Virus record (IMG/VR): IMGVR_UViG_3300025868_000003 | Span: 7,340 to 71,339 of that record | DNA: 64,000 nt | Source of the DNA: a virus | Lineage: Duplodnaviria > Caudoviricetes | Strand: one strand, 5' to 3' | Shown here: piece by piece, positions 3,342 to 28,707 of the stretch | Position numbering within the stretch: position 1 is the first letter of the stretch | How the letters are laid out: each line of letters starts with the position of its first letter | Position numbers and translations under genes: made by a program | Notes under the pieces: model-generated | Database searches by the model: none | What the model saw: the letters and a program-made list of their open reading frames with translations, nothing else | What the model was told of the DNA's origin: nothing

Positions 3342-3344
3342 AGA

Positions 3345-4865: not shown

Positions 4866-4890
4866 ATTAAGAACCGCTTTTTTGGTATAA
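4866..4890 (+). promoter_or_regulatory. ATTAA-N12-TGGTATAA promoter with no downstream ORF
   Basis: Exact consensus match; back-to-back with the TAAAAT motif at 4859-4864 on the minus strand. Confidence 0.6.
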
Positions 4891-5155
4891 GTATATTGCA
4901 GTAGGGTGATTATACCCCACCAGACTACATAGGTGAGGTACATCTTATAATAACAAAAATGATTTGGGAGAATCGAGGTGTTCTATAAACTGTTGGAAGT
5001 TTTCCGTAGTACCAACAATCCCAGATCGTGAATACTACACCGGCGGAAGCCGGGCTTAGTTTATCTAATAAAGCTTTCTGATAACTACTACAATTTATGG
5101 ACGTAAAAAAGCCCAGATTTCTCCAGGCCTTTTAGTGTTACTTTCTAAAAATTTC

Positions 5156-6049: not shown

Positions 6050-6061
6050 ATCTTTCTCCTA

Positions 6062-6502: not shown

Positions 6503-6639
6503 GGTTATATTTCCTTTTAGTTAATTATTTAGATCGAACTAATTATTAGATCAACCAAGGACATTTACTGCCCTGAACTTGTAGAACATAAAGTTCTATA
6601 AATGTATTTTAGTATGGAATTACAGAGTAATAACATTTT

Positions 6640-7737: not shown

Positions 7738-7750
7738 TTTCTTCACCATA

Positions 7751-8347
7751 TTAAGCAACGCAGAATTCAAGAATAGGATCCGTCTTAGGTCTTGCAACTC
7801 CAGCAGCTTTACCCATCTCCCATGCAGGCTCTAGAGCCGATGCAACCTTATCTAACACAGTAGTGCTGACACCCTGTAGTTCAATCAGATCTTCCTTGGT
7901 CAACATACCGGACTTGGCAACTTTCTCCATAGACTGAGGTAGGTTGAACTCTTTTTCCGGGGTATTAGCTTCAGCAACTTTAACCATGTTTTTCAGGTCA
8001 TGAATTTCTGACTCCAACTCTTCCACATACTCAGCTACTTTAATCAGTAACTCCGCTTCTGGACTAGCAGTAACTTCAGATGCTTCTTTAACCAGAGATA
8101 CACTAGTCAGGTTCTTAACGTTGATATTAGCAGCCTTAACCATTGCCACTGCCTTGTCGATGTCGATACCTGACATGACTAGGTGTTCTGTAGCCTCTTT
8201 TTCCATTTCCATTTGTAGAACTTCTGCACGAGCCACGTCTTCAGAAAGACCTGCTTGTTTCAAAAGTTCAACCGCAGCCTCAGTCTCCGAAACTTCAGGA
8301 GTGTGCAAGATTTCTGCATATGCACGTAATTCTTGTGTTAGTGACAT
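7751..8347 (-). CDS. Scaffold-like acidic helical protein with repeated K-x-A sites
   Basis: LKQAG, EKEAT, VKEAS, IKVAE, VKVAE, EKVAK, DKVAS. Confidence 0.6.
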   Translation of the reverse strand: MSLTQELRAYAEILHTPEVSETEAAVELLKQAGLSEDVARAEVLQMEMEKEATEHLVMSGIDIDKAVAMVKAANINVKNLTSVSLVKEASEVTASPEAELLIKVAEYVEELESEIHDLKNMVKVAEANTPEKEFNLPQSMEKVAKSGMLTKEDLIELQGVSTTVLDKVASALEPAWEMGKAAGVARPKTDPILEFCVA

Positions 8348-8388
8348 TTCATTTATCCTTTTTTCTTTTATTGTCTCTAGTAGACACT

Positions 8389-8739
8389 TTAGCAGCAGCT
8401 ACTCCCGTACCGACAGTAGTGGCCGAGGACACTTCTATTGATAAGTCTTCGGATATGCATAGCTGCCATACGCCCAGCTTCATCAGCTAGTCCAGCCCTC
8501 TTCTCAATACTCCTATTAACCTTAACCGCAGCTACATCACCTACCAAACCTAATGCCCCAACAGTAACACCAGCCTTGAGCCAGCTTGGTGCCTTCCAGC
8601 TAGAAATAGATTTAGTTTTAGATAGCATGTCACCACCTATGCCTGTACCTAGTCCAGTAGTAGCTATGATAGCTGTTTGTTTGATCTCTTTTTTAGCATC
8701 TTCAGAGAGAGCGGCTATTTTGGTTAGGTATTTGTTCAT
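8389..8739 (-). CDS. NKYLTKIA-leader Gly-zipper protein (C-terminus probably frameshifted)
   Basis: MNKYLTKIA; two Gly-rich hydrophobic helices; a neighbouring frame gives a better C-terminus ending at 8349. Confidence 0.65.
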   Translation of the reverse strand: MNKYLTKIAALSEDAKKEIKQTAIIATTGLGTGIGGDMLSKTKSISSWKAPSWLKAGVTVGALGLVGDVAAVKVNRSIEKRAGLADEAGRMAAMHIRRLINRSVLGHYCRYGSSCC

Positions 8740-8954
8740 GATTTCCTAAGCTCGTATTTGCTAATGGTTTCTCTGATAGCACCGAGGTTTCTACCCTTAA
8801 ATTTGCGTATAGCTGCAAGGGACCCGGCCCCGACTAAGGTACCTAGGGCAAAACTGGGGGCTTTACCTTTAAGATCATCATACATCCCGTTAGCCTTAGA
8901 AGCATTTGCACTTATGGTGCTGGCAATCTTCTCTAAATACTTATTGTGTTCCAC
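8736..8954 (-). CDS. Small NKYLEKIA-leader protein
   Basis: Probable GTG start at 8954 (MEHNKYLEKIA), after a terminator-like hairpin at about 8970-9003; FALGTLVGAGSLAAI helix. Confidence 0.65.
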   Translation of the reverse strand: MEHNKYLEKIASTISANASKANGMYDDLKGKAPSFALGTLVGAGSLAAIRKFKGRNLGAIRETISKYELRKS

Positions 8955-9026
8955 AGCTTCGTCCCTAATAAAAAGAGGGCGGGCCAATAGCTCCACCCTC
9001 TTAAGGTATTACTTTAACGATACGTC

Positions 9027-10274
9027 TTACAGTCCGTACAGCTCCATGGACTTAGTAGTGACCAGTTCAGCAGCTTTTTCGAAGTCAACACCAGCGTCAA
9101 CCAAGGCTTCAAAAGCAGCCTTCTTTTCACGGGTCAGAGCATATGCACCACCACCGATAGCAGCAGCAGCTGCAGCAGCTTGGGCAATACGATTACCAGC
9201 GATAGATTGCATAGCAAAACGGGGAGACTTACCTAGACTACCTACCGCACCCCTAAGGTTAGAGGCCTCTGACTTAATAGCGGAGGAGAATAGGCCAGAC
9301 TTAGCTTTAGCTTTTTCTGCTAAGGCAGCAATATCTTCTTTAACCTTGCCGGGTAGAGCTTTTAGACCAGCTTTACGGCTACCAGCACCGAGTTGTCCAT
9401 CACCAAAGTTACGACCACCAGTGGCAATACTCTTCACGGTAGCTCCAGTACCAGCTTCTTTGATCAGATCTACAGCAGTTTCAAAGTCAAAACCTTGACC
9501 AACCAGTTCGCTAACAGCGGCTTGCTTGATTTGTGCGTCTTCTTCGATACAAAGAGCCTCTTCAGCTTCCTTAACCAGATCCACAGCGGAATCAAAGTCC
9601 AGACCATTTTCAACTAAAGTGATAACAGCAGCCATCTTCTCTTGAGACTCATCAGCGTGACCTTGAGCAGTAGTGCCTTGATCAACAGCAGCACCTTCAC
9701 CAGCAGAAGCGCCAGCAGATTGTGTTTGGTCATAAGCAGTTGCGCCTTCACCCATTGCGTCAGCAACGATTGCATCAAAGATTTGGTTCACGGAACCACC
9801 ATTACCTGCACCATCGGTACCAGGAACAGCTTGGATCTTAGCGTCGTCTTGTGCTTTCATTTCAGCGTTATCAACGATATTCTTTTGTGGGACAGTACCT
9901 GGGGTAACGCCGTTTTCAGTGATGACATCACCAGCAGAAGCCAGTTTAGTCAGGATTGCATCGGCCAAAGCCTTGCCAGCTACAGAAGCTTGTTTGCTCA
10001 TTTCAGTATTTTCCTTATTGTTAGTTGCTACTTTTTCCAGAATTTCTTTAGCTAAGTCAGCTCCTTGATCAGATGCAGACTTCTCTTGACCTTCTTTCTT
10101 TTTGGCTTTAGCTTTTTCAGCTTCAGCTTCACTGGTTTCACCAGAATCCTTTTTCTCCGACTCTTTAGCGTCTTCTTTCTTGTCGGCTGCAGAACCTTCG
10201 GTTTCAGCGTCAGAAGCTTGCTTCTCAATTGTAGCCAGAAGGTCTTCTAAAGTGAAGTTATCGTTTTTACTCAT
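9027..10274 (-). CDS. Putative prohead scaffolding/core protein
   Basis: Acidic and Ala-rich; about 10 K-x-A sites (EKQAS, EKSAS, EKVAT, SKQAS, TKLAS, EKMAA, VKEAE, IKQAA, IKEAG, EKKAA); directly downstream of the protease. Confidence 0.7.
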   Translation of the reverse strand: MSKNDNFTLEDLLATIEKQASDAETEGSAADKKEDAKESEKKDSGETSEAEAEKAKAKKKEGQEKSASDQGADLAKEILEKVATNNKENTEMSKQASVAGKALADAILTKLASAGDVITENGVTPGTVPQKNIVDNAEMKAQDDAKIQAVPGTDGAGNGGSVNQIFDAIVADAMGEGATAYDQTQSAGASAGEGAAVDQGTTAQGHADESQEKMAAVITLVENGLDFDSAVDLVKEAEEALCIEEDAQIKQAAVSELVGQGFDFETAVDLIKEAGTGATVKSIATGGRNFGDGQLGAGSRKAGLKALPGKVKEDIAALAEKAKAKSGLFSSAIKSEASNLRGAVGSLGKSPRFAMQSIAGNRIAQAAAAAAAIGGGAYALTREKKAAFEALVDAGVDFEKAAELVTTKSMELYGL

Positions 10275-10346
10275 GTTGAAAGTTTTCCTTATAGTTTAGA
10301 TACGGTATTGAATTGTATCTTTTTAGTAATTCTTCGTCAACCTGTA

Positions 10347-11858
10347 TTAACCCTTCTTTAGACATTTAACCATCGCAGCCTTAGCTAGACGATGAGTTAA
10401 CCTGTAATCAGAAGCAGATTTAACTAGTACTATTTTAACACCATTTCCAGAGTGAGGTAAAGCTTCCCTAATTTTCTGTCCAATTATCCTGGTGATAAAC
10501 CATTTAGCAGCTAACGCCGCTCCCCCTACTGCTAGTAACGTGTTAAGTACACTATTACCCTGTTTCCCTTCATTTGCTGCTTGCCACATTTCGAAGGGAG
10601 TTTTTTGGATCTTAGGCCCATTACCTATATATCCTATATTAGTATTATAATGCCTCCCTTGAAAATCATCACGTTCTCTACTGTTGTCGAATATGAAAGC
10701 ACGCTTTTCTACGAATTCTGGAAGCATAGAGCTACCAAGCAATTCAGGAGCAAACAACTTAAGTATAGATGCCTGTGGACTATTTACCGTCTCAGACATC
10801 TCCTTAGGCACGGCTATCTTAGAAGGATCAACCTGGTGCGCTATAGAGGCTATGGTAGGCCCTGAGCCACTCATGTGATCTCCTACTAGCTTGACGGCTA
10901 TTAACTCCCCTAAGAAGACCAGAGAGGGGCTAATGCCTAGATGACCTAATGCGTACAGGATGTCATTAAGCTTGAAATTTTTTAGTATAGGAATCAGTTC
11001 TAACTTAGGGTCTTTTGTTTTAGCTAAAAGTTTGTCCAGCTCAGGATCAGCATCTACAACTATACCATCGTCAATCTGCTTAATAAGATCAGCTAGCTTA
11101 CTAAGGTCAGCTTGCTTATCCATAGCATCATCAGTCAAGCCTTCAATTTCTGCTAGCTCAGCTGAAGACTGGACTTGTGATAAGGAGTCGTCGCTTGCCA
11201 CCTTTTGCATCACAGCAGACGTAGAATCAGCTGGGATCCGTACTATACTCTGGTCAAAGAACCTTAAAGGGGCTGTGTTTAAGGCCATTACCTTACGTCC
11301 GTCACTATACATCTTACCGAGCTCATTACGTAGATGAGTACAATACTCCTGGCGAGTATGAGCCCTATTATGGCAAATAGAGCATTCATCAAAAGCGGTC
11401 CTGCATGCCATACTAGTAGAGGGGAAGTCTCCAGATTCTATACGCTCTACTATGTCACGACCTTTAACTTTATCTATGCTTGCTACTAGCTCCACCCTCC
11501 TCATGTTGGGGTTGTACGTAGAAAATATTACCTTGCCTATAGCTATTTCAGGCCGCTTATTCACATGGTCTCGAAATATATGTGCCGGGGAAGTGACGAA
11601 GGTGTGGTGGTATTCAATGAGATTACTCTCAGGAAAAAAATCTCCATTTTTATTACCCCCATAGAATTCACCGGCCCCCATAGCTAAAATGTGGACGTAT
11701 ATACTAGTACTGTCAGGGTTCAGTTTGGAAACAAACTCATTAATCTCGGAATAGGCTGCAGATTTTTCCAACCCTAACCTAGTCTTATTAAGGTCCAGTA
11801 TAGTTATGGTAGGCTCATCTTCGTGGAAGAAAGACGCTGAGTCAATAAGTTTATACAT
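10347..11858 (-). CDS. Prohead maturation protease (HK97/assemblin-like) with C-terminal extension
   Basis: NKNGDFFP, FRDH (His), PSTSMAC (Ser), CSICHN..CTH, FFDQSIV.PAD; own K-x-A sites (EKSAA, QKVAS, DKQAD, EKRAF, VKSAS). Confidence 0.8.
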   Translation of the reverse strand: MYKLIDSASFFHEDEPTITILDLNKTRLGLEKSAAYSEINEFVSKLNPDSTSIYVHILAMGAGEFYGGNKNGDFFPESNLIEYHHTFVTSPAHIFRDHVNKRPEIAIGKVIFSTYNPNMRRVELVASIDKVKGRDIVERIESGDFPSTSMACRTAFDECSICHNRAHTRQEYCTHLRNELGKMYSDGRKVMALNTAPLRFFDQSIVRIPADSTSAVMQKVASDDSLSQVQSSAELAEIEGLTDDAMDKQADLSKLADLIKQIDDGIVVDADPELDKLLAKTKDPKLELIPILKNFKLNDILYALGHLGISPSLVFLGELIAVKLVGDHMSGSGPTIASIAHQVDPSKIAVPKEMSETVNSPQASILKLFAPELLGSSMLPEFVEKRAFIFDNSRERDDFQGRHYNTNIGYIGNGPKIQKTPFEMWQAANEGKQGNSVLNTLLAVGGAALAAKWFITRIIGQKIREALPHSGNGVKIVLVKSASDYRLTHRLAKAAMVKCLKKG

Positions 11859-12114
11859 TTTTCATTTCACTTTCTTTGAAGGCCTTAACCAAGGCTTTGG
11901 GTTCAGGGGTTATCTCTGGCATGTCAGGCCATACCTTATTATTCTTACTTATGTTATCTAGTGCCGTTATTATGCTACCACTTCTATTCTTACTACCCTT
12001 AAAACTGATTAGAGGTAAGTCTTTACCACAATGCTTACACGTCTTCAGGCCATCAGGATACTCCCAATGTCCACATGCACCACGCCTATGGTCGGTTACC
12101 CAAATCCCAGCCAT
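11851..12114 (-). pseudogene. Internally deleted HNH endonuclease remnant (open frame)
   Basis: KTCKHCGKDLPLISF and ...KNNKVWPDMPEIT match the two ends of the intact HNH at 12552-13190; the catalytic core is absent. Confidence 0.7.
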
Positions 12115-12374
12115 TATTTACTCACTATCTCAGCCTTAGGCAACTTCTTCAAGTTCCTATTAATAGACTTGAGAGTCTCAAGACTCTGCTCTTCCAGCTT
12201 CTGTTTCTTTTTAGCGGAGTAGTTAGTCTCACCAGCATTCAGGGTACGGGAAGTACCCATAGCAAGCCCAGTAGCACCCATACCAAATCCCAATAAGTCT
12301 AGTACGTCTCGCTCTTTTCTACCGTTAAACTTAGGTAGTGACAAGGCAGCAATTTTTTCTAAGTACTTATTCAT
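12114..12374 (-). CDS. Small NKYLEKIA-leader protein
   Basis: MNKYLEKIA; LLGFGMGATGLAMG helix. Confidence 0.75.
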   Translation of the reverse strand: MNKYLEKIAALSLPKFNGRKERDVLDLLGFGMGATGLAMGTSRTLNAGETNYSAKKKQKLEEQSLETLKSINRNLKKLPKAEIVSK

Positions 12375-12559
12375 ATGCTCTTTATGCCTAATTTCTGATT
12401 ATGCAAAGTTAAACCTGAGTTAGCTTTAATAGTGCTACCGATAGGTTTCTTCTTTATGGTCTTACCTAGAGTATTAAAAATAGAGGGGTTAGTTATACTG
12501 GATTTGAATACGTTCAACCCAGGCAGTCCAGCTATTTTATCAAGGTATATGTTACTCAT
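12371..12559 (-). CDS. Small basic protein with NIYLDKIA leader
   Basis: MSNIYLDKIA start at 12559. Confidence 0.65.
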   Translation of the reverse strand: MSNIYLDKIAGLPGLNVFKSSITNPSIFNTLGKTIKKKPIGSTIKANSGLTLHNQKLGIKSI

Positions 12560-13190
12560 TATTAACATCCAATTTAAATGATTTTACCATAGCTTTTAAT
12601 TCTAATGTTATTTCTGACATATCTGGCCAATGTAAGTTATTCTTTTTAAGGTTCTCTACCGCCTCTATAACTCTCAGGTTATGTTCACTATGGAAACCAC
12701 AAACGTAGTCTGATCTAAGGGGAACAATGTGGTCTACATGGTATATATTACCTGTATCCACGGTTTTATTATAAGCCTCTATATACAACTGCTTTATTAA
12801 TAATTCATCAGCCCATAAGACGTTGGCTTGACGTTCAGATGCTATACGGCGTACTTTAGACCGTTTAACTACATGTGGATTCCTACGGTTATATGCCCTA
12901 CCTACTGCCCTACGTCTTTCTTTCTGCTCTTCAGTTTCAGGAGAATCTTTTGTTTTATCATAGTACCTTTTATATGCCGCCCTAGATTTGTCCCTATTAT
13001 TTCTAGCCCACTCTACCTTACGTATTGTTTCACAAGGCTTACATCTACCACTATAGGTGGTACCGCCACTCTTAGTCTTATATTCATAGAAACTAGAAAT
13101 AGGTAGAAGATTTTCACACCCTACGCATATTTTTGATTCCTTAACGTGTATCGGCCTAGCATCTTCTCCAGTAGAGAAGCCTATATTCAT
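12552..13190 (-). mobile_element. HNH homing endonuclease
   Basis: N-terminal CxxC/CxxC; YHVDHIVPL..VCGFHSEHNL..IEAVENLKKNN. Confidence 0.85.
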
Positions 13191-13729
13191 AGAAAGGTCT
13201 TAGGGCTGAAAGAGGTACTATCTTTATATCTAGCCTCTAGGTCTACTAGAGTTTTTATGGTTAGAGGATCTAAGCCCTCCCCCTGTATACAGTTCGCCAG
13301 AATAGAACTCATTATATTAGGATCAGTAGCCACGCGGGGGGAAAACTTAAAGATCGTATTTCCGTATTGTATCACTTTTTCTCTATTAGCATCACGTAGT
13401 AATGGGTTAGTAGAAATAGCTTGTTGTAAAGCCGCCATGTACTTATTATGGAGTGCACCATTGTTAATAGAATTGGCAGCCATTCCTATAATGCCTACTC
13501 CACCAGCGATAGCAGCACCACCAAGACCCTTACCCATACCCTCCATCATGGATGGCATGAAGCCATGGGAACTCCCCCCGTCCCTAGTTTCAATACGAGT
13601 TGCAAACTGGCTCTTAACCGAATCCCAAATTCCCGCCTCTTTGGCAAAACCCTCAGTAAACTCAGTAGCTTTTTGTTGATCACCGGCAAACTTCTCCAGG
13701 CCCATTGCGTATACATTATCTAGTTTCAT
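13187..13729 (-). CDS. Putative internal head protein with K-x-A sites and Gly zipper
   Basis: Probable start MKLDNV at 13729; EKFAG, AKEAG; GLGGAAIAGGVGIIG. Confidence 0.65.
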   Translation of the reverse strand: MKLDNVYAMGLEKFAGDQQKATEFTEGFAKEAGIWDSVKSQFATRIETRDGGSSHGFMPSMMEGMGKGLGGAAIAGGVGIIGMAANSINNGALHNKYMAALQQAISTNPLLRDANREKVIQYGNTIFKFSPRVATDPNIMSSILANCIQGEGLDPLTIKTLVDLEARYKDSTSFSPKTFL

Positions 13730-13748
13730 TACTTTTCCTTTGGTTGAA

Positions 13749-14819
13749 TTAATATGGACCTGTATGGACCATTTGGTGATATATATCTTTTTCTCTACCT
13801 GGCTGATACATAAGTGCATCACCCCCAGCTAGAGCAGTACTTCCTGCTACCCCAGCTATACCAAGCTTCTTAGGAGTAGATAACTTCTTACCTACAGGTC
13901 TAGTCATGTCGATAGCTGAGTTCTTTAAGTTAGTAGCGGTATTTTTAAATCCTCTGCCGATAGCCTTACCTGGTATTGCAATGGCCTTACCTGCTAAGTA
14001 GCCTAAGCCCTTAGACAGCGCCCCTAGAAAAGACTGCTTAGTCAATTCTGCTTGTTTATGTAACTCTGTACGTTTCTCAACTTCTGCTTGTAGGACATTA
14101 GCTTTTTTAGTTAGCTCAACGACTTGCTTAGCCACCTTAAGGTCAGCCTCTTTGAAGATGAACGAACCCTGCACCTGAGATTCTACACCAGCAACCTTTT
14201 CGATACCAGTCTCAGAAACTCCCAGCATCTCCAGTTTAATAGAGGCCTTAGGATCACGAGCTAGTACAGACGCAGCTTTCTCAAGAGAGTCCTTAGTGAC
14301 TATTAGGTCATCAGTGGCACGAGACAGGAGGTGTTTATTCTCAGCTGCCATCTTGGTTAGGAGGTAAAACATCTCGGTTGGAGATTGGATGGTGATGTTG
14401 GTTTGGTCTAGTTCGGCAGAGGCTTGTTTAGTCATCCGGGCTCTAGATTCGGCTAAGTCACCTTCAATATCAATCCTGCGCATAGAAGTAGTAACTTCTC
14501 CATTAACCAATCTTACTTCAGTGTGGAACTTAGGTACGGCAGAAGCTACTTTCTCGATGTTAGGCAGAGTAATATGAGCCATGACTTCTGCAGTCTTGCA
14601 TAGTGGGAACTCAATAGTGCGATCCTCAGCCACTTTTACCAGTTTTAGGTAGCAGATGCTGTTAGTGGCCTCAACGGCACGCTGAATCTGCTCCGAATTT
14701 AATTCATAAGCAGCAGCCTGTTTAGCCAGACCTTCGCTTAGAGGAACGTGGTCATTCAGAAACCCTTCTACGGTTTTAACCGAGATGGTCTGAAGTTGTT
14801 CTGTTGTTATTGATGGCAT
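13749..14819 (-). CDS. Putative internal head/core protein with about 10 K-x-A sites
   Basis: AKQAA, VKVAE, CKTAE, EKVAS, TKQAS, TKMAA, EKAAS, EKVAG, FKEAD, HKQAE; cationic and hydrophobic C-terminus. Confidence 0.65.
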   Translation of the reverse strand: MPSITTEQLQTISVKTVEGFLNDHVPLSEGLAKQAAAYELNSEQIQRAVEATNSICYLKLVKVAEDRTIEFPLCKTAEVMAHITLPNIEKVASAVPKFHTEVRLVNGEVTTSMRRIDIEGDLAESRARMTKQASAELDQTNITIQSPTEMFYLLTKMAAENKHLLSRATDDLIVTKDSLEKAASVLARDPKASIKLEMLGVSETGIEKVAGVESQVQGSFIFKEADLKVAKQVVELTKKANVLQAEVEKRTELHKQAELTKQSFLGALSKGLGYLAGKAIAIPGKAIGRGFKNTATNLKNSAIDMTRPVGKKLSTPKKLGIAGVAGSTALAGGDALMYQPGREKDIYHQMVHTGPY

Positions 14820-14857
14820 CTTGCATCCTCATAATTATATGGTTATTTTAAGTCAGT

Positions 14858-15325
14858 CTACTTCTTAGGTGGCAAGTGATTTAGTATGGCATCTAAAGAT
14901 TTTTCTGCACTACCGCCAGGGACATGCGCATACGTTCTATCTTTATGTCCAGCACTCCTATGTATGGAGTTAATGGCGTCCCTGTCCACCAGTTCTGGGT
15001 GGCTATTATATCTTTTAAGTTTGGAAAGTCCTCCCGATACCGCACCTACTGCGGCACCCGCTAAACCTAACTTTAACCCCATCTTAGTTTTGCTAGGCAT
15101 TACTCCGCCACCTATAACTGCCCCCAGTCCTGCTCCTGCAGCCCCGAGTATTCCACCGCTGGTTAAAGCTCCTCTACGTATTCCAGAGTTTTTCTGGTCT
15201 CTATGCAATCTATCGTAGGATGATTTATCACTAATCCTAATGACCCCTGACTCATTATGGTACTGTATACCAGGCCTTACCTCACTCCATTTAGCGATCT
15301 TCTCTAAATATTTATTTTCACTCAT
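14858..15325 (-). CDS. NKYLEKIA-leader protein with double Gly zipper
   Basis: MSENKYLEKIA; GGILGAAGAGLGAVIGGG and GLAGAAVGAVSGG. Confidence 0.75.
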   Translation of the reverse strand: MSENKYLEKIAKWSEVRPGIQYHNESGVIRISDKSSYDRLHRDQKNSGIRRGALTSGGILGAAGAGLGAVIGGGVMPSKTKMGLKLGLAGAAVGAVSGGLSKLKRYNSHPELVDRDAINSIHRSAGHKDRTYAHVPGGSAEKSLDAILNHLPPKK

Positions 15326-18040: not shown

Positions 18041-18889
18041 TTAAGCTGTACAACCTAGGGCTTTTCTAGTAGTTTCTGTTAGGCTAACTATAGCAGGAGC
18101 TTCATTAGTCAGCACCTCAAAGGATGATGATACTAAATTACTACCAAACCCATTAGCCTCTCTATAATTAGGACCCACTATCGAAGCGACGTATCCTGCT
18201 GCAGTACTACCAACTTTATCCTTACCACCATATCCTAGATACGATCCCATGGCTACCAGTAATCTACTATGATTAATATATTCAGTGCCATTAAAAGACC
18301 TGTACCATCTCACACCGTCTTTATATCTAAGCACATTATGCCACTTATCATTCAGGATAATTAACCCAGACATTATTTGGTTAGTTAAGATGTCATCCGT
18401 AAATTCTTTACCATTAACACCCATTACCTTACCTATTGAGTCTCCAGGGTTTATTGTTAACCTCACTGCCCAGGATGCATCAAACCCATACTTCAACACT
18501 AGTCTCTCTATTTCACATTGTGTGGTGGAGCTCCAAGGGGATATTCCCCTAACATGGTTGTAACCCATGCTTTGAGCTAACCCATATGCCTTGGTACATT
18601 CATTAATATTGGCAGTTAAATTTACATCGTTAAGTTTAGTTACCTGTACCACCTTAGGATGTAATAGGAACCTACCGGCTGCATTACCAGGGGTAGTACC
18701 AGAAGTATCTGGACCGGTATTATCTGGATGCATTGAGCTCTCTTTTCTCATTAGAGCCATGAACATATTCTCTAAGTCTGTCTCCTTACTAACCATCCCT
18801 TGGAATCTGCTATTTTTAAGGAGATAGCGTAGTATGTCTCTTATTTTTTCATACTCTCTAGGGCTCTTACCTGGTACTCTAGTAGCCAT
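18041..18889 (-). CDS. Putative lytic transglycosylase/lysozyme-fold protein
   Basis: ALMRKESS (catalytic Glu-Ser), YGLAQ, AMGSYLG; translationally coupled to the beta' C-terminal gene. Confidence 0.5.
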   Translation of the reverse strand: MATRVPGKSPREYEKIRDILRYLLKNSRFQGMVSKETDLENMFMALMRKESSMHPDNTGPDTSGTTPGNAAGRFLLHPKVVQVTKLNDVNLTANINECTKAYGLAQSMGYNHVRGISPWSSTTQCEIERLVLKYGFDASWAVRLTINPGDSIGKVMGVNGKEFTDDILTNQIMSGLIILNDKWHNVLRYKDGVRWYRSFNGTEYINHSRLLVAMGSYLGYGGKDKVGSTAAGYVASIVGPNYREANGFGSNLVSSSFEVLTNEAPAIVSLTETTRKALGCTA

Positions 18890-20718
18890 TAGTATCGCCC
18901 ATGATATCCATCACCGAACTCATTACCTATAAGGAATGGGGTTATAGGGTCTGTACTATGTACATCAGATTCTTGCCCCAGAGCTGCCGCATCCTTTAGG
19001 CTATTTTCTAATTTAGAGAAAGATAACCTAGAGATCCAGTTCTTATCTAACAACTTAGCAGTTTGTAGACCGGGGACCACCGGAGTTATCCTCAGTCTAC
19101 TACCTGTAGTTTTAACCGACTTAACACCTTGGCGATGTAGTTCATCTATGTGATTATCATCCAAGGTAGTACCAGGTGTTAATTCAAATTGGCTACGTGA
19201 TAGCATCTTACCCTTAGCTTGATGTAGGGGGGTGTCCACTTCATCCTGTTGTAGATGCTTAGATATGGAGTTAATAGTAACCTTATCTCCTGGGGTAAAT
19301 CCGGTTTCTCCAGGGCTGTCTACCTGTACGTACTTAACTAGATTACGGGAAATTAACTCGAAGTGTCTAGGATCTAAGCCGCCACCATATATATTCCTTA
19401 GCTCTTCTGCCAAGTATTTACGTCCAGCTCCTATGCCTCTCAAGGAAACTAGTTTCCTAGGGTTAATAACCCCCGTAGATATTGCATATCCCCTCTTTAC
19501 CGCATTCCCTTTCTTTATGGTCAACTGCTGTATTCTAGGAACAAAGTGTTTAACTCCATCTATGAATACGTGATGGTCCTTTAGAGGCGTCAGTATTATA
19601 TCATTAACCTTACCATTGACCTCTGAGATAGTAGCTTCATCCTTGAAGTTCTCTTTAGGGTTGTTAAGAATGTTAGAGGCTTGATCATATATATTACCAC
19701 GACGTTCTCCAACAGTAGCCTTATGTTTAGTTGATAACATAGCTTGTGTAAGAACCTCTGATACTGATTGTGCGGCTATAATACCTACGTTTTCACCTAT
19801 CTCAGGGTTTTTCCCACTACCCATTAGTCCATAACATTTCTTACATACACCCTCGTTAGCCTCACATGTCAATGCGCTGCGGACCACTACCGTAGGGGAG
19901 CGGGACATAGTAAGGTGCTTATAGTACTCCTCGTCTATTACGTGGTTAGTACCGGCTTCGTACCTTCCTAATACAGACTTTTTGTCAGATACCTTTTGGG
20001 TGATACCATTCTTAGTTCCACAGTCATCTACTGTAATAGTCTCATGGAAGACTGTAGGACTTAGGCGTTTAAATAGAGCTCCAGGTAGAGCAGTCGATAG
20101 CTGGGATAGAACCGTAGAACCGCGTCCCATGTAACTCATGGCTAGGTGTTCGGCTGGGGACATACCACTAGCAAAGGAGCTCTTAATTACTAGGGGTATT
20201 AACTCCCCCTTAACGTTTAATGACATAAGTGGAGTAGAGGTACCCGAAGCTAACTGAGCGGGATTACCACGAGCCCCAGTTCTAGCCATCTTAGCAGCGG
20301 TAGACCCCCTACCAGAAAGGTAGTCTAGGTTCTGTTTTTCTATTCGCTTGTTATAGTCGGAAGTTAAACTGCCTAAGCCATCGTTCTTATGGGACTTACT
20401 TCCTGGCCCATGGATTATTTTATTAGCCTTAGTTTCGTATTCCTTAAGGATAGCTGAGCGCTCATCACTTTCATTTATGTAGTCTGATAGGGGGGTAGAG
20501 GCACCTATTTCAGTAGCCTTATTAAAGAACATCTGTCCTAATGTATTTATATGTTCATGGGACTTACTACCACCATGCCTTATAAGCATATTTACCATCC
20601 TAGACATACCCCCCTTATCTAAAGGGGTGTGTATGTCAAATTCCTGTTTAGCCTTTTCGGTAGGCATGGAGTGCTTAATTATAAGGGAGCCAACGGTGGT
20701 TAGTTTAGTATCAGTCAT
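18889..20718 (-). CDS. rpoC: RNA polymerase beta' subunit, C-terminal part
   Basis: TTVG start, GARGN..QL, bridge helix (STALPGALFKRL), DDCGT, VRSALTCEANEGVCKKCYG Zn site, trigger loop AAQSVSEVLTQAMLSTKH, RHFELISR. Confidence 0.93.
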   Translation of the reverse strand: MTDTKLTTVGSLIIKHSMPTEKAKQEFDIHTPLDKGGMSRMVNMLIRHGGSKSHEHINTLGQMFFNKATEIGASTPLSDYINESDERSAILKEYETKANKIIHGPGSKSHKNDGLGSLTSDYNKRIEKQNLDYLSGRGSTAAKMARTGARGNPAQLASGTSTPLMSLNVKGELIPLVIKSSFASGMSPAEHLAMSYMGRGSTVLSQLSTALPGALFKRLSPTVFHETITVDDCGTKNGITQKVSDKKSVLGRYEAGTNHVIDEEYYKHLTMSRSPTVVVRSALTCEANEGVCKKCYGLMGSGKNPEIGENVGIIAAQSVSEVLTQAMLSTKHKATVGERRGNIYDQASNILNNPKENFKDEATISEVNGKVNDIILTPLKDHHVFIDGVKHFVPRIQQLTIKKGNAVKRGYAISTGVINPRKLVSLRGIGAGRKYLAEELRNIYGGGLDPRHFELISRNLVKYVQVDSPGETGFTPGDKVTINSISKHLQQDEVDTPLHQAKGKMLSRSQFELTPGTTLDDNHIDELHRQGVKSVKTTGSRLRITPVVPGLQTAKLLDKNWISRLSFSKLENSLKDAAALGQESDVHSTDPITPFLIGNEFGDGYHGRY

Positions 20719-23735: not shown

Positions 23736-23766
23736 CCTAATCTAGGCTAATGTGGTAAAATAGGAT

Positions 23767-24468
23767 ATGTCCAATTCTACTCAATCTATTCTTTTCACTA
23801 GGCAGCGCCATGACGCTGAACGGGCTGGATTACACTATGACTATAGAATTGTAGTGGGGGATAAAGCTTACTCGTGGGCCACTAAGAGAGAACTTCCAGA
23901 ACCTGGTAAGGCCATAATTCTATGGGAACAACCGGTCCACACCGCAGACTATGCCCTCAGTCAAAGGGTTGAGATTCCTAGTGGCCAATATGGGGCGGGA
24001 ACTACTACCCTTGATTGGATTAAAAAGGGAACTGCAAAGTTCAATGAAGACAAGATTACGGTAGAAACTAAAGGTAGTAAGTTTCTAATCAAGAAAATGC
24101 CCGAACATTATGGGAAGGGTGCGTGGTTATTTAAGAGGGTGGATAGTGTGAGTGAGAATAAGTATTTGGAGAAGATTTCATCTGATCTATCCATCGCATC
24201 TAAGTCTCATGCTGAGGAGACTAAGGCCATACACGATTACACCGAGCTCCTTAAGGATGCTAAATCTCCAGAGCTAAAAAAGGCTATTGAACACGCCCGT
24301 AAGGAGGAGGGGGATCATGCCTCTGATTTCAAGAAGGTTATGAGCAAAGAGGCCGAACTACGAGAAGAGTTAAGGCTGAAGCCTAAACTAAGGGGTAATA
24401 GGTATCTTAAGAAGGCTAAGGCTATTAAGCCTCATAATAATAAAAGTATTATTACTCATAATAAATGA
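23767..24468 (+). CDS. LigD-type 3'-phosphoesterase fused through an NKYLEKIS motif to a half-ferritin-like domain
   Basis: QRHDAERAGLHYDYRI, YSWA, HTADY, IPSGQYGAG (LigD PE motifs); ENKYLEKIS; EETKAIHDY...EEGDH. Confidence 0.85.
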   Translation: MSNSTQSILFTRQRHDAERAGLHYDYRIVVGDKAYSWATKRELPEPGKAIILWEQPVHTADYALSQRVEIPSGQYGAGTTTLDWIKKGTAKFNEDKITVETKGSKFLIKKMPEHYGKGAWLFKRVDSVSENKYLEKISSDLSIASKSHAEETKAIHDYTELLKDAKSPELKKAIEHARKEEGDHASDFKKVMSKEAELREELRLKPKLRGNRYLKKAKAIKPHNNKSIITHNK

Positions 24469-24504
24469 GCATGAGTTTTCCTGATCCAGTGTTAAAATAT
24501 AGTT

Positions 24505-25386
24505 ATGAACTATATTAAAAAACAATTAGACTCTTTATCAGAAGCAGATTTTAAGGACTCATATCTGGTTACGCTGGTGGATGGCAGACAACATACATAC
24601 CTAGGTCAGGATGAGATCCAAATAGTATACCCTGGGTGGAAGGACGGATGGAGGACACTTAAGGTAGCTGAAGTATCCAAATACTTGGAAATGCCTTACA
24701 TGAAATCCAGGTTATACATGCCTCTCCCCAGCCCTAAGGAGTTACCAGAGCAGAAATACTTTATAGACCCTTATCTGTTAGGGGTATTAATAGGGGATGG
24801 CGGTTTAGGATATGGGAGAATGACTATTACTTCTGCTGATGAAGATTTAATACAAAACTGTAATTCCCGCATTCACTTCGGGTTCGAGGTGGTAAAACTT
24901 AGTAGTAAGTACGGGTACGGGTTACGTAGAAATAAAGTAACAGGGTCTAAGGGTAAGCATAATGCTTATACGGATGAAATCAGACGACTAGGTTTAAATG
25001 TTAATTCTGAACTTAAGTTTATACCTGAGAACTACTTAGTTGGATCAATAGAACAGCGTTCATGGTTAATGAAAGGACTTATGGATACCGATGGTACCAT
25101 AGACCTCCAAGGAACTAGCTCTTATTGCTCGACTAGCTATAGGCTAGCATGTGATGTAGTTGAGTTAGCCAGATCCCTCGGACATATAGCATTTATAAGC
25201 GAAAGACACCCATCCTTTACATACCTGGGGGTAAAGAAAAAAGGTAAGACGGCATATCAGGTTAATCTACGGGTTAGAAATCCAAGAAGCCTGTTTAGTA
25301 TATCAAGAAAACTAAGTAGATCCCCGGATAAAAATCAATACTCCGATACTTTAAAATTGCGTATAGAAGACATACAGAGATTATGA
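24505..25386 (+). mobile_element. Free-standing intein-type LAGLIDADG homing endonuclease
   Basis: PYLLGVLIGDG, LMKGLMDTDG, STSYRLACDVVELARSLG; no intein splice-junction residues. Confidence 0.85.
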
Positions 25387-26840
25387 ATAAGTACCTAGTC
25401 AAAATAGCGGGGTCTAAGTCTACACAAACTACTCTAAAACCTCATCAGGAGCGCTCTTTGAGAAAACTGGAGTTAGAAGGAGGTGTCCTACTAGACCACG
25501 GCACAGGTACGGGTAAAACTAAGACCTTTCTTGCAGCCATAGAGCGTGCGCAGAAGAGAGATAAGAAGAACTATGCATTGGCAATAGTTCCAGCCTCTCT
25601 AGTATCCAATATAAATAAAGAGATAAAAAAGCATGGTATGGATATAGATACTAAGCGCCTGCTGGTAACTACCTATAATAAAGCTGTTAATGATGTCGAC
25701 GAATTATCTAATAAGCACTTTTCCATAGCCGTGGCTGATGAGGCCCAGGCTTTGAGAAACCCAACTACCAAACGCCATAAAGCCCTTAGTAAACTTATAA
25801 CAGGGGCTGATCAGCGCCTGCTAGCTACTGCTACCCCTAGGTACAATCATGCTGGTGATCAGGGGCCATTAGTTAATATCGTCGCAGGTAAAAAGGTACT
25901 ACCAGAAGGTAAAGACGCTTTTGAAAAAGAGTTCGTAGTTCGTAAAACAGAACACCCTAATATTCTTAGACGTGTACTCATGGGTGCTACCCCTAAAGAG
26001 ACGGTTGAAATAAAGAATAGCAAGTATCTGGATAAAGTCCTGAATAAATACACCGATCACTACGATGTTAAAAATGATCCTGAACTTCAAAAGCACTTCC
26101 CCACCACTTCGGAGAAGGTGATTGAAGTAGAGATGTCTCCTGAACAGCGTACACTTTACAAGTTTATGGAAGGTAAGCTCCCCTGGGCTATGAAAATGAA
26201 GGTACGTATGGGTATGCCACTAGACAAGCGTGAGAGCCGTGAGTTAAATGCGTTCTCTTCTGGTGTACGTCAGGTATCTAACTCTACTAAACCGCTCCTA
26301 ACCAACTCGTCTCATGTTACTCCTAAAACTATACAGGCAGTAGACAACCTGCATAAAGCCATAAAATCGGATAAGAATTTTAGAGGAGTGGTATACTCTA
26401 ATTTCTTAGAATCTGGGTTACGAGATTACTCTGAAGAACTGACTAAACGTAATATTTCACATGCTATATTCCATGGAGGATTAAGTGCGAAGCAGAAGGA
26501 TGAAATTAAGGATGCATATAATGGCGGCAAGATCAAGGCGATGCTCGTTTCTAGCTCTGGAGCGGAAGGCTTAGACTTAAAAGGTACTAAACTCATGCAG
26601 ATACTTGAGCCTCATTTTAATCAGTCAAAAATAGATCAGGTAGTAGGTAGGGCGGCTAGATATGAATCTCATACTCATCTACCAAAAAGTGAGCGCCATG
26701 TAAACATAGAGCATTACCACTCCATACTACCTAAGGGGTTTATGGGAAATAGGCCGCATAGTATTGATCAATATCTCTATCATAACTCTCAGACTAAAGA
26801 CGACCTTAATGAGAAGATAAAAGCATTGCTCCATGACTAG
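25383..26840 (+). CDS. SNF2-like SF2 helicase/translocase with NKYLVKIA leader
   Basis: HGTGTGKT, DEAQ, ATATP, SGAEGLDL, QVVGRAAR; starts MNKYLVKIA. Confidence 0.88.
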   Translation: MNKYLVKIAGSKSTQTTLKPHQERSLRKLELEGGVLLDHGTGTGKTKTFLAAIERAQKRDKKNYALAIVPASLVSNINKEIKKHGMDIDTKRLLVTTYNKAVNDVDELSNKHFSIAVADEAQALRNPTTKRHKALSKLITGADQRLLATATPRYNHAGDQGPLVNIVAGKKVLPEGKDAFEKEFVVRKTEHPNILRRVLMGATPKETVEIKNSKYLDKVLNKYTDHYDVKNDPELQKHFPTTSEKVIEVEMSPEQRTLYKFMEGKLPWAMKMKVRMGMPLDKRESRELNAFSSGVRQVSNSTKPLLTNSSHVTPKTIQAVDNLHKAIKSDKNFRGVVYSNFLESGLRDYSEELTKRNISHAIFHGGLSAKQKDEIKDAYNGGKIKAMLVSSSGAEGLDLKGTKLMQILEPHFNQSKIDQVVGRAARYESHTHLPKSERHVNIEHYHSILPKGFMGNRPHSIDQYLYHNSQTKDDLNEKIKALLHD

Positions 26841-26853
26841 TCATAAATAGTTA

Positions 26854-26878
26854 ATTAATTACCCTCTATTTGGTATAA
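26854..26878 (+). promoter_or_regulatory. ATTAA-N12-TGGTATAA promoter
   Basis: Exact consensus match upstream of 26922. Confidence 0.65.
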
Positions 26879-26921
26879 GTATCTTGTAAGGATATCCCTT
26901 ACATAACCAAAGGAGACAATC

Positions 26922-27200
26922 ATGAAACAAATCATCCCGGTAGTACTCGTGGCATTGTTTTCAGCAAATTCCTTTGCTGACTCCGGTACTGATGCATTGC
27001 GTGCTCAGAAGGAACGGGATTCCATATATTCCAGCAATAGTGGTTCTTATTGCTATCGTGCAAACCAACGTGCCAATGCCGCCGAGAACTACATGTATCA
27101 AGACATCAATCGCCAACAGCAGCAGCGTGTTGAGCGTGACCATGAAATCCTCCGTGATGAACAGTTGCGCCAATCGGTACGTCGCCAGAACGGCTGGTAA
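26922..27200 (+). CDS. Small exported protein
   Basis: Signal peptide MKQIIPVVLVALFSANSFA; AAGGAG ribosome-binding site. Confidence 0.75.
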   Translation: MKQIIPVVLVALFSANSFADSGTDALRAQKERDSIYSSNSGSYCYRANQRANAAENYMYQDINRQQQQRVERDHEILRDEQLRQSVRRQNGW

Positions 27201-27265
27201 CTACTAAACTATAGGGGTGTGAAACTACATCCCTCAGTTTAACTTACACACAACAGGAAAACGTC

Positions 27266-27751
27266 ATGTCAAACAAAAACCAAACCTCAATGCCCCACCT
27301 ATCTCCAAGTAACATAATGGAGCTGCTGGGCGAAGAAACCGTTGAAAGAATATCCTCGATAGTTGATGATTGGGTGAAAGCAAATTCAACTAAAGAGCCT
27401 ACAGAAGAACAGTTGGCCGCCATCAGAGACATGAACGTGGATGGGGAATACCGAATGCGTCTACTCACTATTCTGGACTCCATGTTTGCGGGCATGACTG
27501 CCACTAATTGGGACCCTGATGCCTGCAAAGGTATCATGAGTATGGTGATGAATGGTTCACTGGAAGCCATACGTGACCATGCTAGAAAGCTGGAAAAGTT
27601 TGAGATGGAGTCCAGGGGCATCGACTTGGATAGCTTTGCCAAGAAAAGAGCTGAGGTGGAAGAAGAGATAAAGGGATTAGTGGCCAAGGTCACTGAGGAA
27701 AGTGATATAAATACACCTTCACCAGCTTCAACCAACCACATCGTCCATTAG
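27266..27751 (+). CDS. Hypothetical acidic protein
   Basis: AGGA ribosome-binding site; followed by a terminator hairpin at about 27765-27793. Confidence 0.7.
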   Translation: MSNKNQTSMPHLSPSNIMELLGEETVERISSIVDDWVKANSTKEPTEEQLAAIRDMNVDGEYRMRLLTILDSMFAGMTATNWDPDACKGIMSMVMNGSLEAIRDHARKLEKFEMESRGIDLDSFAKKRAEVEEEIKGLVAKVTEESDINTPSPASTNHIVH

Positions 27752-27810
27752 TAGTAACTACAACAACACCCCGGACATCAGGGTGTTTTTTTAATTAAGA
27801 CAGGATAACG

Positions 27811-28707
27811 ATGTTTACTAGACATAAGTATATAGACTCTAGCAAAGTAGATTGGACTACTATAGAAAACCCAGCCGCATCTATTAAAAGAGATGGGGCC
27901 CATTTCTTCCTCAGTTTTGACTCCAAAGGAGCACCATCTTTTATATCGAGGAGACCTTCAGTTAAAGGTGGATTTCCCGATAAAACAAATAGGGTTCCTC
28001 ACCTAGCCTCTTTTAAAGCTCAGGAATTGGCCGGACATACATATTCGGTGGAGTTAGTCCATACAGGTAAGGTTAAAACTGAAGATGATAACCATGCTAG
28101 GGTATCTGGAATACTTAACTCATTACCAGCTAAAGCTATTGAATCTCAGAAAGAGCATGGCCCAGTCCGAGCAGTTCTTTTAGATACTATTAACCCACCC
28201 TTACAGACTTACGCTCAGAAGATGGAACACCTGAACAAGGTGGAAAGGATTATAGGGAAATCTGATTTAATCTTCTCCCCAAAAGTATATACAGATTTAC
28301 CCAGTATAGTTAAGTTAATAGATCATACTAAAAATACAGGCAAAGAGGGGGTTATAGTTACTAGTTGGACTAAGCCTGAACTACATAACCCTCGTGTTAA
28401 GATTAAACACATAGATACTTATAATCTACGTGTAGTTGGTATGGAGGAAGAACACCATATACATGGTAAGCCTAAAGGATCTATGGGGGCACTAATACTG
28501 GCCGATGCTACTGGTAAGATCGTAGGTAAGATGGGTACTGGATTTACCAGGGACATGAGGATAGACATGTGGGCCCATAAGAGTAGGGTTATGAACAGCC
28601 TGATACAGGGTAAAACCTTTGGTCAAGGTGGGGTGGATCGCTCTGGAAAACTTAGGGTGCTCGTATATAACGGGGCAGCCGATGGGGAGTGCGATACTAT
28701 TTCGTAA
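27811..28707 (+). CDS. ATP-dependent DNA ligase (minimal NTase + OB)
   Basis: Motif I IKRDG, VEL, EGVIV, KIK; OB domain GSMGAL..GKMGTGF. Confidence 0.88.
   Translation: MFTRHKYIDSSKVDWTTIENPAASIKRDGAHFFLSFDSKGAPSFISRRPSVKGGFPDKTNRVPHLASFKAQELAGHTYSVELVHTGKVKTEDDNHARVSGILNSLPAKAIESQKEHGPVRAVLLDTINPPLQTYAQKMEHLNKVERIIGKSDLIFSPKVYTDLPSIVKLIDHTKNTGKEGVIVTSWTKPELHNPRVKIKHIDTYNLRVVGMEEEHHIHGKPKGSMGALILADATGKIVGKMGTGFTRDMRIDMWAHKSRVMNSLIQGKTFGQGGVDRSGKLRVLVYNGAADGECDTIS

Follow-up and report, generated by a model that had tools for sequence, protein, structure and literature searches.

In a large, uncultured phage of the Arash-like clade (roughly 130-210 kb, with a multisubunit virion RNA polymerase), the genes for a predicted LigD-type 3'-phosphoesterase (PE), a SWI2/SNF2 helicase and a minimal ATP-dependent DNA ligase belong to a real conserved unit. 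The PE and the helicase carry a short peptide, the tag, that elsewhere in the contig is restricted to small proteins of the head module. The unit may be an accessory cargo module, in which a capsid-tagged "heal-and-seal" pair (PE and ligase) and a translocase are ejected with the genome for nick repair; we give this reading an even chance. The gene block lies in a 71-kb contig, of which a stretch of 64,000 nucleotides (the window) was analysed; its features are collected in Table 1. The PE with ENKYLEKIS, the helicase starting MNKYLVKIA and the ligase are all present where a first-pass annotation of the same DNA had placed them. Co-occurrence was scored in 50 related viral genomes, a separate tblastn set comprised 80 related loci, and the proteomics comparison is with phage Arash alone among the relatives (PMC10585845).

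Table 1. Features of the PE-helicase-ligase block and its surroundings (window coordinates)
Feature	Position	Strand	Remarks
Head module with other tag copies	407..15325	-	N-terminal tags at 604, 4852, 7737, 8739, 8954, 12374, 12559, 15325
RNA polymerase beta' piece	18889..20718	-	divergent neighbour of PE-helicase-ligase block
TAAAAT-N5-ATG promoter-like motif, PE start	23756..23769	+	
PE fusion gene	23767..24468	+	233 aa: LigD-type 3'-phosphoesterase (predicted), tag, EncFtn-like hairpin, second tag-like motif
PE domain, aa 1-127	23767..24147	+	putative catalytic H15, H23, D25, R27, H58, Y62
Internal tag NKYLEKIS, aa 131-138	24157..24180	+	domain junction
EncFtn-like two-helix hairpin, aa 139-203	24181..24375	+	E151-x6-Y158, E181-x2-H184
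Second, degenerate tag NRYLKKAK, aa 211-218	24397..24420	+	
Free-standing two-motif LAGLIDADG homing endonuclease	24505..25386	+	Pfam LAGLIDADG_3, Hom_end; own TAAAAT-N6-ATG 24493-24507
Minimal SWI2/SNF2 ATPase	25383..26840	+	485 aa, starts MNKYLVKIA
N-terminal tag NKYLVKIA of helicase	25386..25409	+	
Two small genes	26922..27751	+	92 aa (signal-peptide-like N-terminus) and 161 aa
Terminator-like hairpin and T-run	27766..27795	+	directly upstream of ligase; read directly from sequence
Minimal ATP-dependent DNA ligase	27811..28707	+	298 aa, untagged; phrog_114 5e-14

The N-terminal domain of the PE gene product scores 37.5 bits against Pfam LigD_N (cut-off 31.1; residues 13-105) and is matched by phmmer to the solved LigD and archaeal PE structures 3p43, 5dmp, 3n9b and 3p4h. 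An AF2 model (mean pLDDT 82.5) gave seven significant Foldseek matches, all seven to LigD PE structures, with TM-target values of 0.77-0.81 against archaeal PE. The six putative catalytic residues align to conserved residues of solved structures (3p43, 3n9b) and are invariant in an alignment of 13 homologs. Judged from sequence and model, the protein is a LigD-type 3'-phosphoesterase with an intact active site. ENKYLEKIS (aa 130-138) is followed by the hairpin, with modelled helices at 132-164 and 168-203, which scores 25.8 bits against Pfam EncFtn-like and 21.7 bits against Rubrerythrin, both slightly under cut-off; its metal-site residues E151, Y158, E181 and H184 are invariant in 13 aligned sequences. 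PE homologs have NKYL or NRYLEKIA at the site of the second tag, and then more sequence. The PE-tag-hairpin architecture recurs in at least 10 protein clusters (46-96% identity). In relative P0009 the PE stretch is all but the same (96% identity across the aligned half), and an unrelated module comes after the tag; in L008 the PE terminates in the tag.

The helicase is recognized by Pfam (SNF2-rel_dom, 2.3e-21; Helicase_C, 2.6e-14) and has a Walker A motif (aa 40-46), a DEAQ box (119-122) and motif VI (419-427). Its AF2 model (mean pLDDT 90.3) matches Chd1, CSB, Mot1 and Snf2h at a Foldseek E of about 1e-22. The tag forms a low-confidence, free N-terminal segment of the model ahead of the core: pLDDT is below 50 for residues 1-13, with a short helix at 3-9, and the confident core starts from about residue 20. 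A second SNF2 gene (44042-45853), untagged, sits among replication genes.

The ligase gene starts 971 nt past the helicase stop and is preceded by a Shine-Dalgarno sequence; the stem of the hairpin upstream was flagged by a scan on the minus strand only. The encoded protein has the motifs KRDG (aa 26-29), EGV (179-181) and KIK (197-199), and K26-x-D28-G29, E179-G180 and K197/K199 are invariant among 12 homologs, by which alignment its catalytic motifs are intact. It has a weak match to the OB region of Chlorella virus ligase, just 23-28% identity to other phage ligases, and no DNA-binding domain. As the first-pass annotation had observed, the window's ligase lacks a leader; it has neither the tag nor a TAAAAT motif, and it lies downstream of a TGGTATAA motif (near 26871, upstream of the two small genes), a different promoter class. 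The small genes are untagged, and homologs of them were not found in the related loci. The endonuclease (LAGLIDADG motifs at aa 91-100 and 188-197), whose stop overlaps the helicase ATG, had no tblastn match in the 80 related loci and is a selfish insert outside the module.

The window has nine TAAAAT-N5/6-ATG sites where 1.97 would be expected, and none of 100 shuffles gave as many; eight of the nine fall at a long ORF's ATG, among them those of the PE, the endonuclease and two RNA polymerase pieces (beta', 20718; beta C-terminal, 31903). The annotation's placing of this motif on PE, endonuclease and structural genes was borne out, the motif being common to RNAP and virion genes. At the PE start, some relatives have TAAAAT and others TGGTATAA.

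The co-occurrence that had been proposed as a check is clear. Among the 50 genomes, PE and ligase were found in the same 15, with none discordant, and within about 3.5 kb of each other in every one; in the subset with a completeness of 90% or more, 7 carry the two genes and 21 lack them both. The helicase is joined to them in fusions. PE-SNF2 fusions are present in L016, L018, L020, L023, L025 and L027, a PE-ligase fusion in L065 (Pfam), PE and ligase matches sharing one frame in G039 and G041, and PE-ligase-pyrophosphatase-SNF2 as one chain of 1300 aa in L083. At least four distinct fusion architectures link PE, or PE and ligase, to the helicase. Neither Ku nor a LigD Prim-Pol was found in the contig, as the annotation had stated, and Ku, the LigD polymerase domain and NAD ligase are all absent from the complete relatives. 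The module resembles bacterial Ku-LigD end joining and archaeal PE (3p43, 3p4h, 5dmp) in the PE fold, in the six active-site residues and in the pairing of PE with an ATP-dependent ligase. It differs in lacking Ku and a primase-polymerase, in its minimal ligase, in partnering the PE with an SNF2 translocase, an EncFtn-like domain and a head-protein tag, and in being encoded within a virion/RNAP gene region.

The tag is present in 12 copies in the contig against 0.12 expected; its codons vary freely at synonymous positions, and selection acts on the protein level. The head module, which has an internal copy within 6640-7797 besides the N-terminal ones, is syntenic with Arash gp218-gp226 (protease, scaffold-like protein, major capsid protein). 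In G002, a complete genome, the tag copies on ORFs that have a start codon are confined to two places, the PE-helicase-ligase block and the interval from scaffold to capsid genes, and several G006 proteins carry a lineage variant, DE-x-x-KIA. Conservation of the tag in relatives, another check that had been proposed, was found in part: the ligase itself has an N-terminal tag in L010-13, L016, L018 and L020, but Arash lacks the tag, as well as the PE and such a ligase.

The EncFtn proteins that have been characterised reside as cargo in encapsulin shells with the HK97 fold. The PE gene product is similar in that an EncFtn-like E...Y / E-x-x-H hairpin is joined by a short peptide in a phage with an HK97-type shell; it is dissimilar in its Pfam score slightly under cut-off, in the shell being the phage capsid and in a tag unrelated to known encapsulin loading peptides. 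The T4 internal proteins IPI-III bear a capsid-targeting sequence (CTS), MKTYQEFIAE (PMC8442874, PMC3012670), to which the tag matches in register at M, Y, E, I and A, a likeness over no more than nine residues. Both are short N-terminal peptides common to unrelated proteins, with diverse, swapped cargo behind them; here, however, packaging and cleavage are putative, the tag is also internal or C-terminal (the L008 PE), and DNA-repair enzymes are among the cargo. Because no Glu comes after the tag, it departs from the T4 gp21 rule.

The helicase ortholog of Arash, gp217, is found in virions with 38 unique peptides and 1148 spectra, compared with 40 and 1210 for the beta' ortholog gp216 and 30 and 1333 for the major capsid protein; gp216, gp217 and gp218 are near-equal in amount (PMC10585845). 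In phage PhiPA3, the SNF2 helicase gp233 localises with virion bouquets (PMC10643120). Virion delivery of the PE and the helicase, as claimed in the first-pass annotation, is plausible because the tag is on head proteins, resembles the T4 CTS, and the Arash ortholog is in virions; for the window's ligase, which is untagged, the case is weaker. Since the enzymes are conserved together, with PE fused to this helicase in relatives, and since the tag of head proteins is on PE, on the helicase and on the ligase of some relatives, the three probably enter the virus particle and reach the host along with the genome.

The helicase might instead assist the virion RNA polymerase as a cofactor, similar to RapA, CSB or NPH-I, and release or restart the polymerase on injected DNA, which we consider possible but doubtful. 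On that view it would be linked to PE and ligase only through a shared cargo train of head-cut polyproteins, with PE and ligase acting without it, and in G007 the PE-ligase operon is indeed kept 25 kb away from the helicase. Vaccinia NPH-I is packaged in virions alongside the viral RNAP, and the C-terminal lobe of the phage helicase matches it at 7.9e-8; the best Foldseek matches include Pol II-bound CSB, but Foldseek is unable to tell RNAP-linked SNF2 proteins from others. In the tag-less, Arash-type loci the gene immediately after that for beta' encodes the helicase (gp216 being directly upstream of gp217), and the virion abundance of gp217 equals that of RNAP pieces. A RapA-like role has been proposed for an RNAP-linked SNF2 helicase of phiKZ-group phages, a putative homolog (Iyer et al. 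2021, PMC7824862). Unlike such proteins, the helicase here is a bare core with a cargo tag and repeated fusion to end-repair enzymes, and the several fusion architectures argue against a purely transcriptional role, although, if tags are cleavage sites, fusions may reflect shared packaging and not joint action. It is rather improbable that nothing is packaged and that the block serves ordinary repair and replication inside the cell, sealing nicks and cleaning 3' ends, with NKYLEKIA serving, for example, in docking to a common hub or as a head-protease mark. The replication region has its own untagged SNF2 gene, Arash virions contain the helicase ortholog as a major protein, and the tag is otherwise a feature of small head-module proteins. 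An ordinary replicative role for the ligase is possible, since it is the sole DNA ligase found in 5 complete relatives; the window's copy is untagged and may be transcribed from signals of its own, and promoter class at the PE differs across relatives. Yet the 21 complete clade members without such a ligase indicate that it is dispensable for replication in the clade.

The first-pass annotation had viewed the injected enzymes as a counter-defence that rejoins double-strand breaks made by restriction or Cas nucleases, or genome ends, a reading that we find very improbable. Restriction and Cas9 breaks have 3'-OH and 5'-phosphate ends, so the PE would be superfluous there; in the absence of Ku and the polymerase domain, ends would be neither bridged nor filled, and the ligase is minimal. 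Mycobacteriophages use Ku and host LigD for circularisation, and direct terminal repeats are present in relatives of this phage, but genomes with terminal redundancy can become circular through recombination. A precedent is DarB, a head component of P1 with a packaged methylase and SNF2-type ATPase that shields incoming DNA from restriction (Iyer et al. 2017, PMC5512222). Like DarB and the polyvalent proteins, which are delivered with invading DNA, L083 is a multi-enzyme polypeptide with a SWI2/SNF2 ATPase; the genes in the window are separate, Pfam scans of the module proteins gave no methylase domain, and keyword searches of that paper found no combination of PE and DNA ligase. Repair of restriction or Cas9 breaks as first stated is unlikely, and this part of the claim is unsupported.

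In the cargo-module reading that we prefer, the NKYLEKIA peptide, whose other bearers are small proteins encoded between the head protease/scaffold genes and the capsid gene, most likely serves to dock cargo in the prohead during assembly, in the manner of the T4 CTS or an encapsulin loading peptide. It is also the point where one cargo module is exchanged for another. We infer the packaging of the PE and, especially, of the ligase, as well as any cleavage of the tag and the substrate and timing of repair. Ejected with the genome, the PE would take off 3'-phosphates or 3'-ribonucleotides, and the minimal ligase would seal the cleaned nicks, the pair being tied to a putative dsDNA translocase by adjacency and repeated gene fusion. 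In this way, 3'-blocked nicks in the incoming DNA may be repaired before the virion polymerase begins early transcription or while it is under way.

The source record is a 71.3-kb virus contig, about 39% complete by CheckV, of which the window is the final 64 kb. It belongs to a clade of phages of ~130-210 kb with a split multisubunit RNA polymerase (RNAP), whose cultured members found here are Salmonella phage Arash and three Vibrio phages; a block megablast against 50,697 phage records gave no match. A first-pass annotation had recognized in the block a LigD-type 3'-phosphoesterase (PE), a SNF2-like helicase and a minimal ATP-dependent ligase, and all three assignments were borne out.

Coordinates of the PE-helicase-ligase block and of other window features
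Feature	Position	Strand	Placement
385-aa multi-tag protein	6640-7797	-	head module
PE fusion gene	23767-24468	+	first gene of block
EncFtn/rubrerythrin-like tail	24181-24375		within PE fusion gene
LAGLIDADG endonuclease	24505-25386	+	between PE fusion gene and helicase
SNF2 ATPase	25383-26840	+	upstream of two small genes
TGGTATAA motif	near 26871		
Two small non-conserved genes		+	between SNF2 ATPase and ligase
Ligase	27811-28707	+	after two small genes
HNH/Mom-like gene	28840-30765	+	after ligase
Second SNF2-family ATPase	44042-45853		near replication-type genes

The PE domain matches the LigD 3'-phosphoesterase profile PF13298 at 37.5 bits (curated cut-off 31.1). Residues H15, H23, D25, R27, H58 and Y62 align with conserved residues of the structures 3p43 and 3n9b and are unchanged across 13 homologs; from Pseudomonas aeruginosa LigD, we take the first two histidines and the aspartate to be metal-binding, and the arginine, third histidine and tyrosine to bind phosphate. 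An AF2 model has pLDDT >90 across most of residues 5-125, and the seven significant Foldseek matches to its beta-barrel fold are all PE structures. The predicted activity is Mn-dependent 3'-phosphatase and 3'-ribonucleoside resection. A tblastn search of the 50,697 phage records found no PE in cultured phages, and a literature search found no report of LigD PE in phages. The physiological role of LigD PE is still debated.

The PE protein ends in a two-helix hairpin resembling encapsulated ferritin (EncFtn) and rubrerythrin, in which E151-x6-Y158 and E181-x2-H184 are unchanged in 13 homologs; the two glutamates are 30 residues apart, the spacing of encapsulated ferritin. The hairpin is a candidate metal-binding cargo domain of the phage head. 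The PE-tag-EncFtn-like architecture is kept in at least 10 protein clusters, which rules out a sequencing frameshift as the origin of the fusion. Three codons upstream of the tag in this gene, a GTG preceded by GAGG could be an internal start.

The helicase is a bare SWI2/SNF2 core (AF2 mean pLDDT 90.3). It matches the profiles of both the SNF2 N-lobe and Helicase_C, retains Walker A, DExx and motif VI, and has the fold of the family, with Foldseek E values of ~1e-22 to Chd1, CSB, Mot1 and Snf2h. The phage has a second SNF2-family ATPase of 603 aa (phrog_62, 2e-82), without the tag and with a counterpart in the complete relative G002 at 48% identity; thus one SNF2 protein lies in the virion/RNAP region and another near replication genes.

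The ligase retains motifs I (KxDG), IV (EG) and V (KxK). In an alignment with 12 homologs, K26, D28, G29, E179, G180 and K197 are unchanged and K199 nearly so. It matches phrog_114 (5e-14), scores 19.2 bits to DNA_ligase_OB_2, under the cut-off of 28, and has a weak match to the OB region of Chlorella virus ligase. It was said to lack a leader, and indeed it has no tag: the N-terminal RHKYI was rejected as one, being a conserved part of the ligase (Y7 is nearly invariant). The ligases of seven related loci (L010:9454-10827, L011-13, L016, L018 and L020) are 455-465 aa long and start with the tag; ahead of the ligase core they have an extra domain of ~160 aa, for which a Pfam search gave no match.

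Whether the three genes travel together, a question raised by the first-pass annotation, was addressed in relatives. The helicase sequence alone retrieved no related loci and an alignment query was needed; a profile built from four helicases gave 308 matching stretches in viral contigs, from which 80 loci were kept. Where the helicase is at least 47% identical, about 20 of 26 loci have PE upstream and ligase downstream on one strand. Whole-record searches of 50 genomes placed PE in 15 and the ligase family (E <1e-48) in the identical 15, with no discordant case; among records at least 90% complete, seven have both and 21 neither. Arash has neither PE nor this ligase family. PE and ligase lie within ~3.5 kb of each other in every located case; in one genome (G007) they share an operon 25 kb away from the helicase. 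Fusions join all three enzymes: PE, tag and SNF2 form a single frame in six loci (L016, L018, L020, L023, L025 and L027), PE and ligase are fused in L065 (Pfam), and their matches share one frame in G039 and G041. In L083:5496-9395, from genome G006, a single 1300-aa frame comprises PE, ATP ligase, an InPase-type inorganic pyrophosphatase (PF18823, 1.3e-26) and SNF2; the pyrophosphatase could drive ligase adenylation. This chain of four enzyme domains is reminiscent of polyvalent proteins, in which several unrelated enzyme domains are delivered as one polypeptide, whereas the window fuses just PE and the EncFtn-like domain.

The linkage of PE to an ATP-dependent ligase, co-occurring in 15 of 15 genomes, resembles Ku-LigD non-homologous end joining, but the window phage differs in lacking both Ku and the LigD primase-polymerase. 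As had been claimed for the window, Ku (PF02735) and the primase-polymerase domain (PF21686) are absent from the contig, and they are absent from five complete relatives also; NAD ligase was likewise absent from the five relatives, and the primase of the window is DnaG-type.

The endonuclease gene encodes a pair of LAGLIDADG motifs and is precisely flanked by the PE fusion gene and the helicase tag codons; since no counterpart occurs across the 80 related loci, it is a selfish insert. Its N-terminal part resembles intein regions of terminase genes (phrog_19299, 6.9e-23). An intein was ruled out: the gene starts and stops with codons of its own (the start being ATG), neither neighbouring gene shares its reading frame, no His-Asn or nucleophile junction is present, and all relatives lack it. 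The 641-aa product of the gene after the ligase matches HNH/homing-endonuclease PHROGs 559 and 3339 and has a Mom-like region and zinc ribbons; homologs in just two related loci (L028 and L060) suggest a second element that is mobile or serves DNA modification.

The motif TAAAAT-N5/6-ATG, which had been noted at the PE and endonuclease genes, is indeed at both and also heads two RNAP pieces; nine sites occur against 1.97 expected, eight of them on start codons. In relatives, PE is headed by TAAAAT or, in some genomes, by TGGTATAA in its place. The TGGTATAA motif, an apparent second promoter class, also recurs just upstream of window genes and, in many relatives, at the PE-ligase block ends. 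A sigma-70 promoter scan of the block gave fewer sites than shuffled sequence.

The peptide common to PE (NKYLEKIS) and the helicase N-terminus (NKYLVKIA) is not confined to these proteins. Motifs of the type N-[KR]-Y-L-x-K-I-A number 12 in the contig, where codon-block shuffles give 0.12, and synonymous codons vary at every tag position, so selection acts on the peptide; the same variation rules out that the tag works at the nucleotide level, for instance as a promoter or downstream box. The other copies all lie in the head module, syntenic with Arash gp218-gp226, at the N-termini of small proteins or within a 385-aa protein. The latter has several internal tags, two of them after KQASF, together with a segment that matches Pfam Gly-zipper families (E ~1e-4), and has the appearance of small tagged cargo units strung together. 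In complete genome G002, tags on start-codon ORFs occur only in the PE-helicase-ligase block or between scaffold-like and capsid genes. The more distant G006 has a variant, DE-x-x-KIA, on several proteins including the helicase region. The tag may be N-terminal, internal or C-terminal (the PE of locus L008 ends with it), and in the helicase model it is predicted as a low-confidence segment that contains a short helix and precedes the confident core. In one relative (P0009), the aligned half corresponds to the PE domain and is 96% identical to the window protein, and an unrelated module follows the tag; P0003 is a further near-identical relative. The helicase ortholog of Pseudanabaena phage PA-SR01 (L002, 5578-7374) is extended at its N-terminus by 140 aa in which R-R-x-F-L-K-N occurs twice, and this motif may be a cyanophage tag of the same kind. 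The T4 capsid-targeting sequence MKTYQEFIAE is likewise a short terminal peptide common to unrelated proteins, and its M, Y, E, I and A match the tag in register (PMC8442874, PMC3012670); the resemblance is suggestive, not proof.

Direct evidence of virion delivery is limited to the helicase ortholog of Arash, gp217, which is 38% identical to the window helicase and itself untagged. Purified Arash virions gave 38 unique peptides and 1148 spectra for gp217, as compared with 40 and 1210 for RNAP β' and 30 and 1333 for the major capsid protein; two other helicases gave 2 peptides each (PMC10585845). Arash virion proteins have no convincing tag, and their proteomics therefore cannot validate the tag itself. 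In PhiPA3, a helicase of the SNF2 class localises with virion bouquets and the ligase is nuclear (PMC10643120). In relatives where PE is fused to helicases like gp217 it would, by inference, be packaged with them, and the tagged ligases of some relatives point to packaging too. Packaging of the window ligase is less supported, as it has no tag and follows a hairpin and T-run and, farther upstream, a TGGTATAA motif. Should cleavage occur at the tags, the fusions would indicate co-delivery and not joint catalysis.

What the delivered enzymes might do can be read in several ways. The first-pass annotation proposed repair of restriction or CRISPR breaks or joining of genome ends, yet breaks made by restriction enzymes or Cas9 are unlikely to be rejoined in this way, because such ends need no PE and Ku is absent. 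In the favored reading, PE and ligase would act on 3'-blocked nicks as a heal-and-seal pair like that of LigD, coupled to, or at minimum shipped with, an RNAP-linked double-stranded DNA translocase, and the common peptide would target these proteins to the prohead. Alternatively or in addition, the helicase may be a RapA/NPH-I-like polymerase cofactor: in Arash the gene of its ortholog (gp217) directly follows that of β' (gp216) and the two proteins are equally abundant in virions. On fold, Foldseek did not separate RapA-, NPH-I- or CSB-like proteins from other SNF2 cores.

The most complete form of the nick-repair reading, a pre-loaded and translocase-guided machine whose tag is both capsid address and recombination joint, is tentative and, taken whole, rather unlikely. 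The SNF2 motor would be ejected with the genome beside the virion RNA polymerase, track the DNA and stall at strand breaks, delivering PE to unblock the 3' end and a pre-adenylated ligase to seal the nick. In this way a genome that had been damaged or nicked inside the particle, or while entering the cell, would be made transcribable before phage gene expression. NKYLEKIA would serve as a general capsid-loading address and as a joint at which cargo cassettes are swapped between phages, and the ferritin-like cassette might keep iron-driven DNA damage in the head in check.

Phages inject RNA polymerases, anti-restriction proteins and pore formers, and packaged DNA repair enzymes are reported for large eukaryotic viruses; our literature search for DNA repair enzymes packaged in phage particles found no report. 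Delivered multi-enzyme proteins are already known as polyvalent proteins and DarB (PMC5512222). The parts (LigD PE and ligase domains, SNF2, cargo of the T4 type) are known as well, and the combination of a PE-ligase pair with a virion SNF2 motor and a head-protein tag appears to be new. If the tag is a loading signal, it would constitute a second, T4-independent capsid address system for arbitrary proteins, with engineering use; a Ku-less PE-ligase pair could then be mobile, exchangeable virion cargo, and the LigD PE domain would have a new biological setting. The link between the repair pair and an RNAP-associated SNF2 motor would offer a testable phage analogue of transcription-coupled repair.
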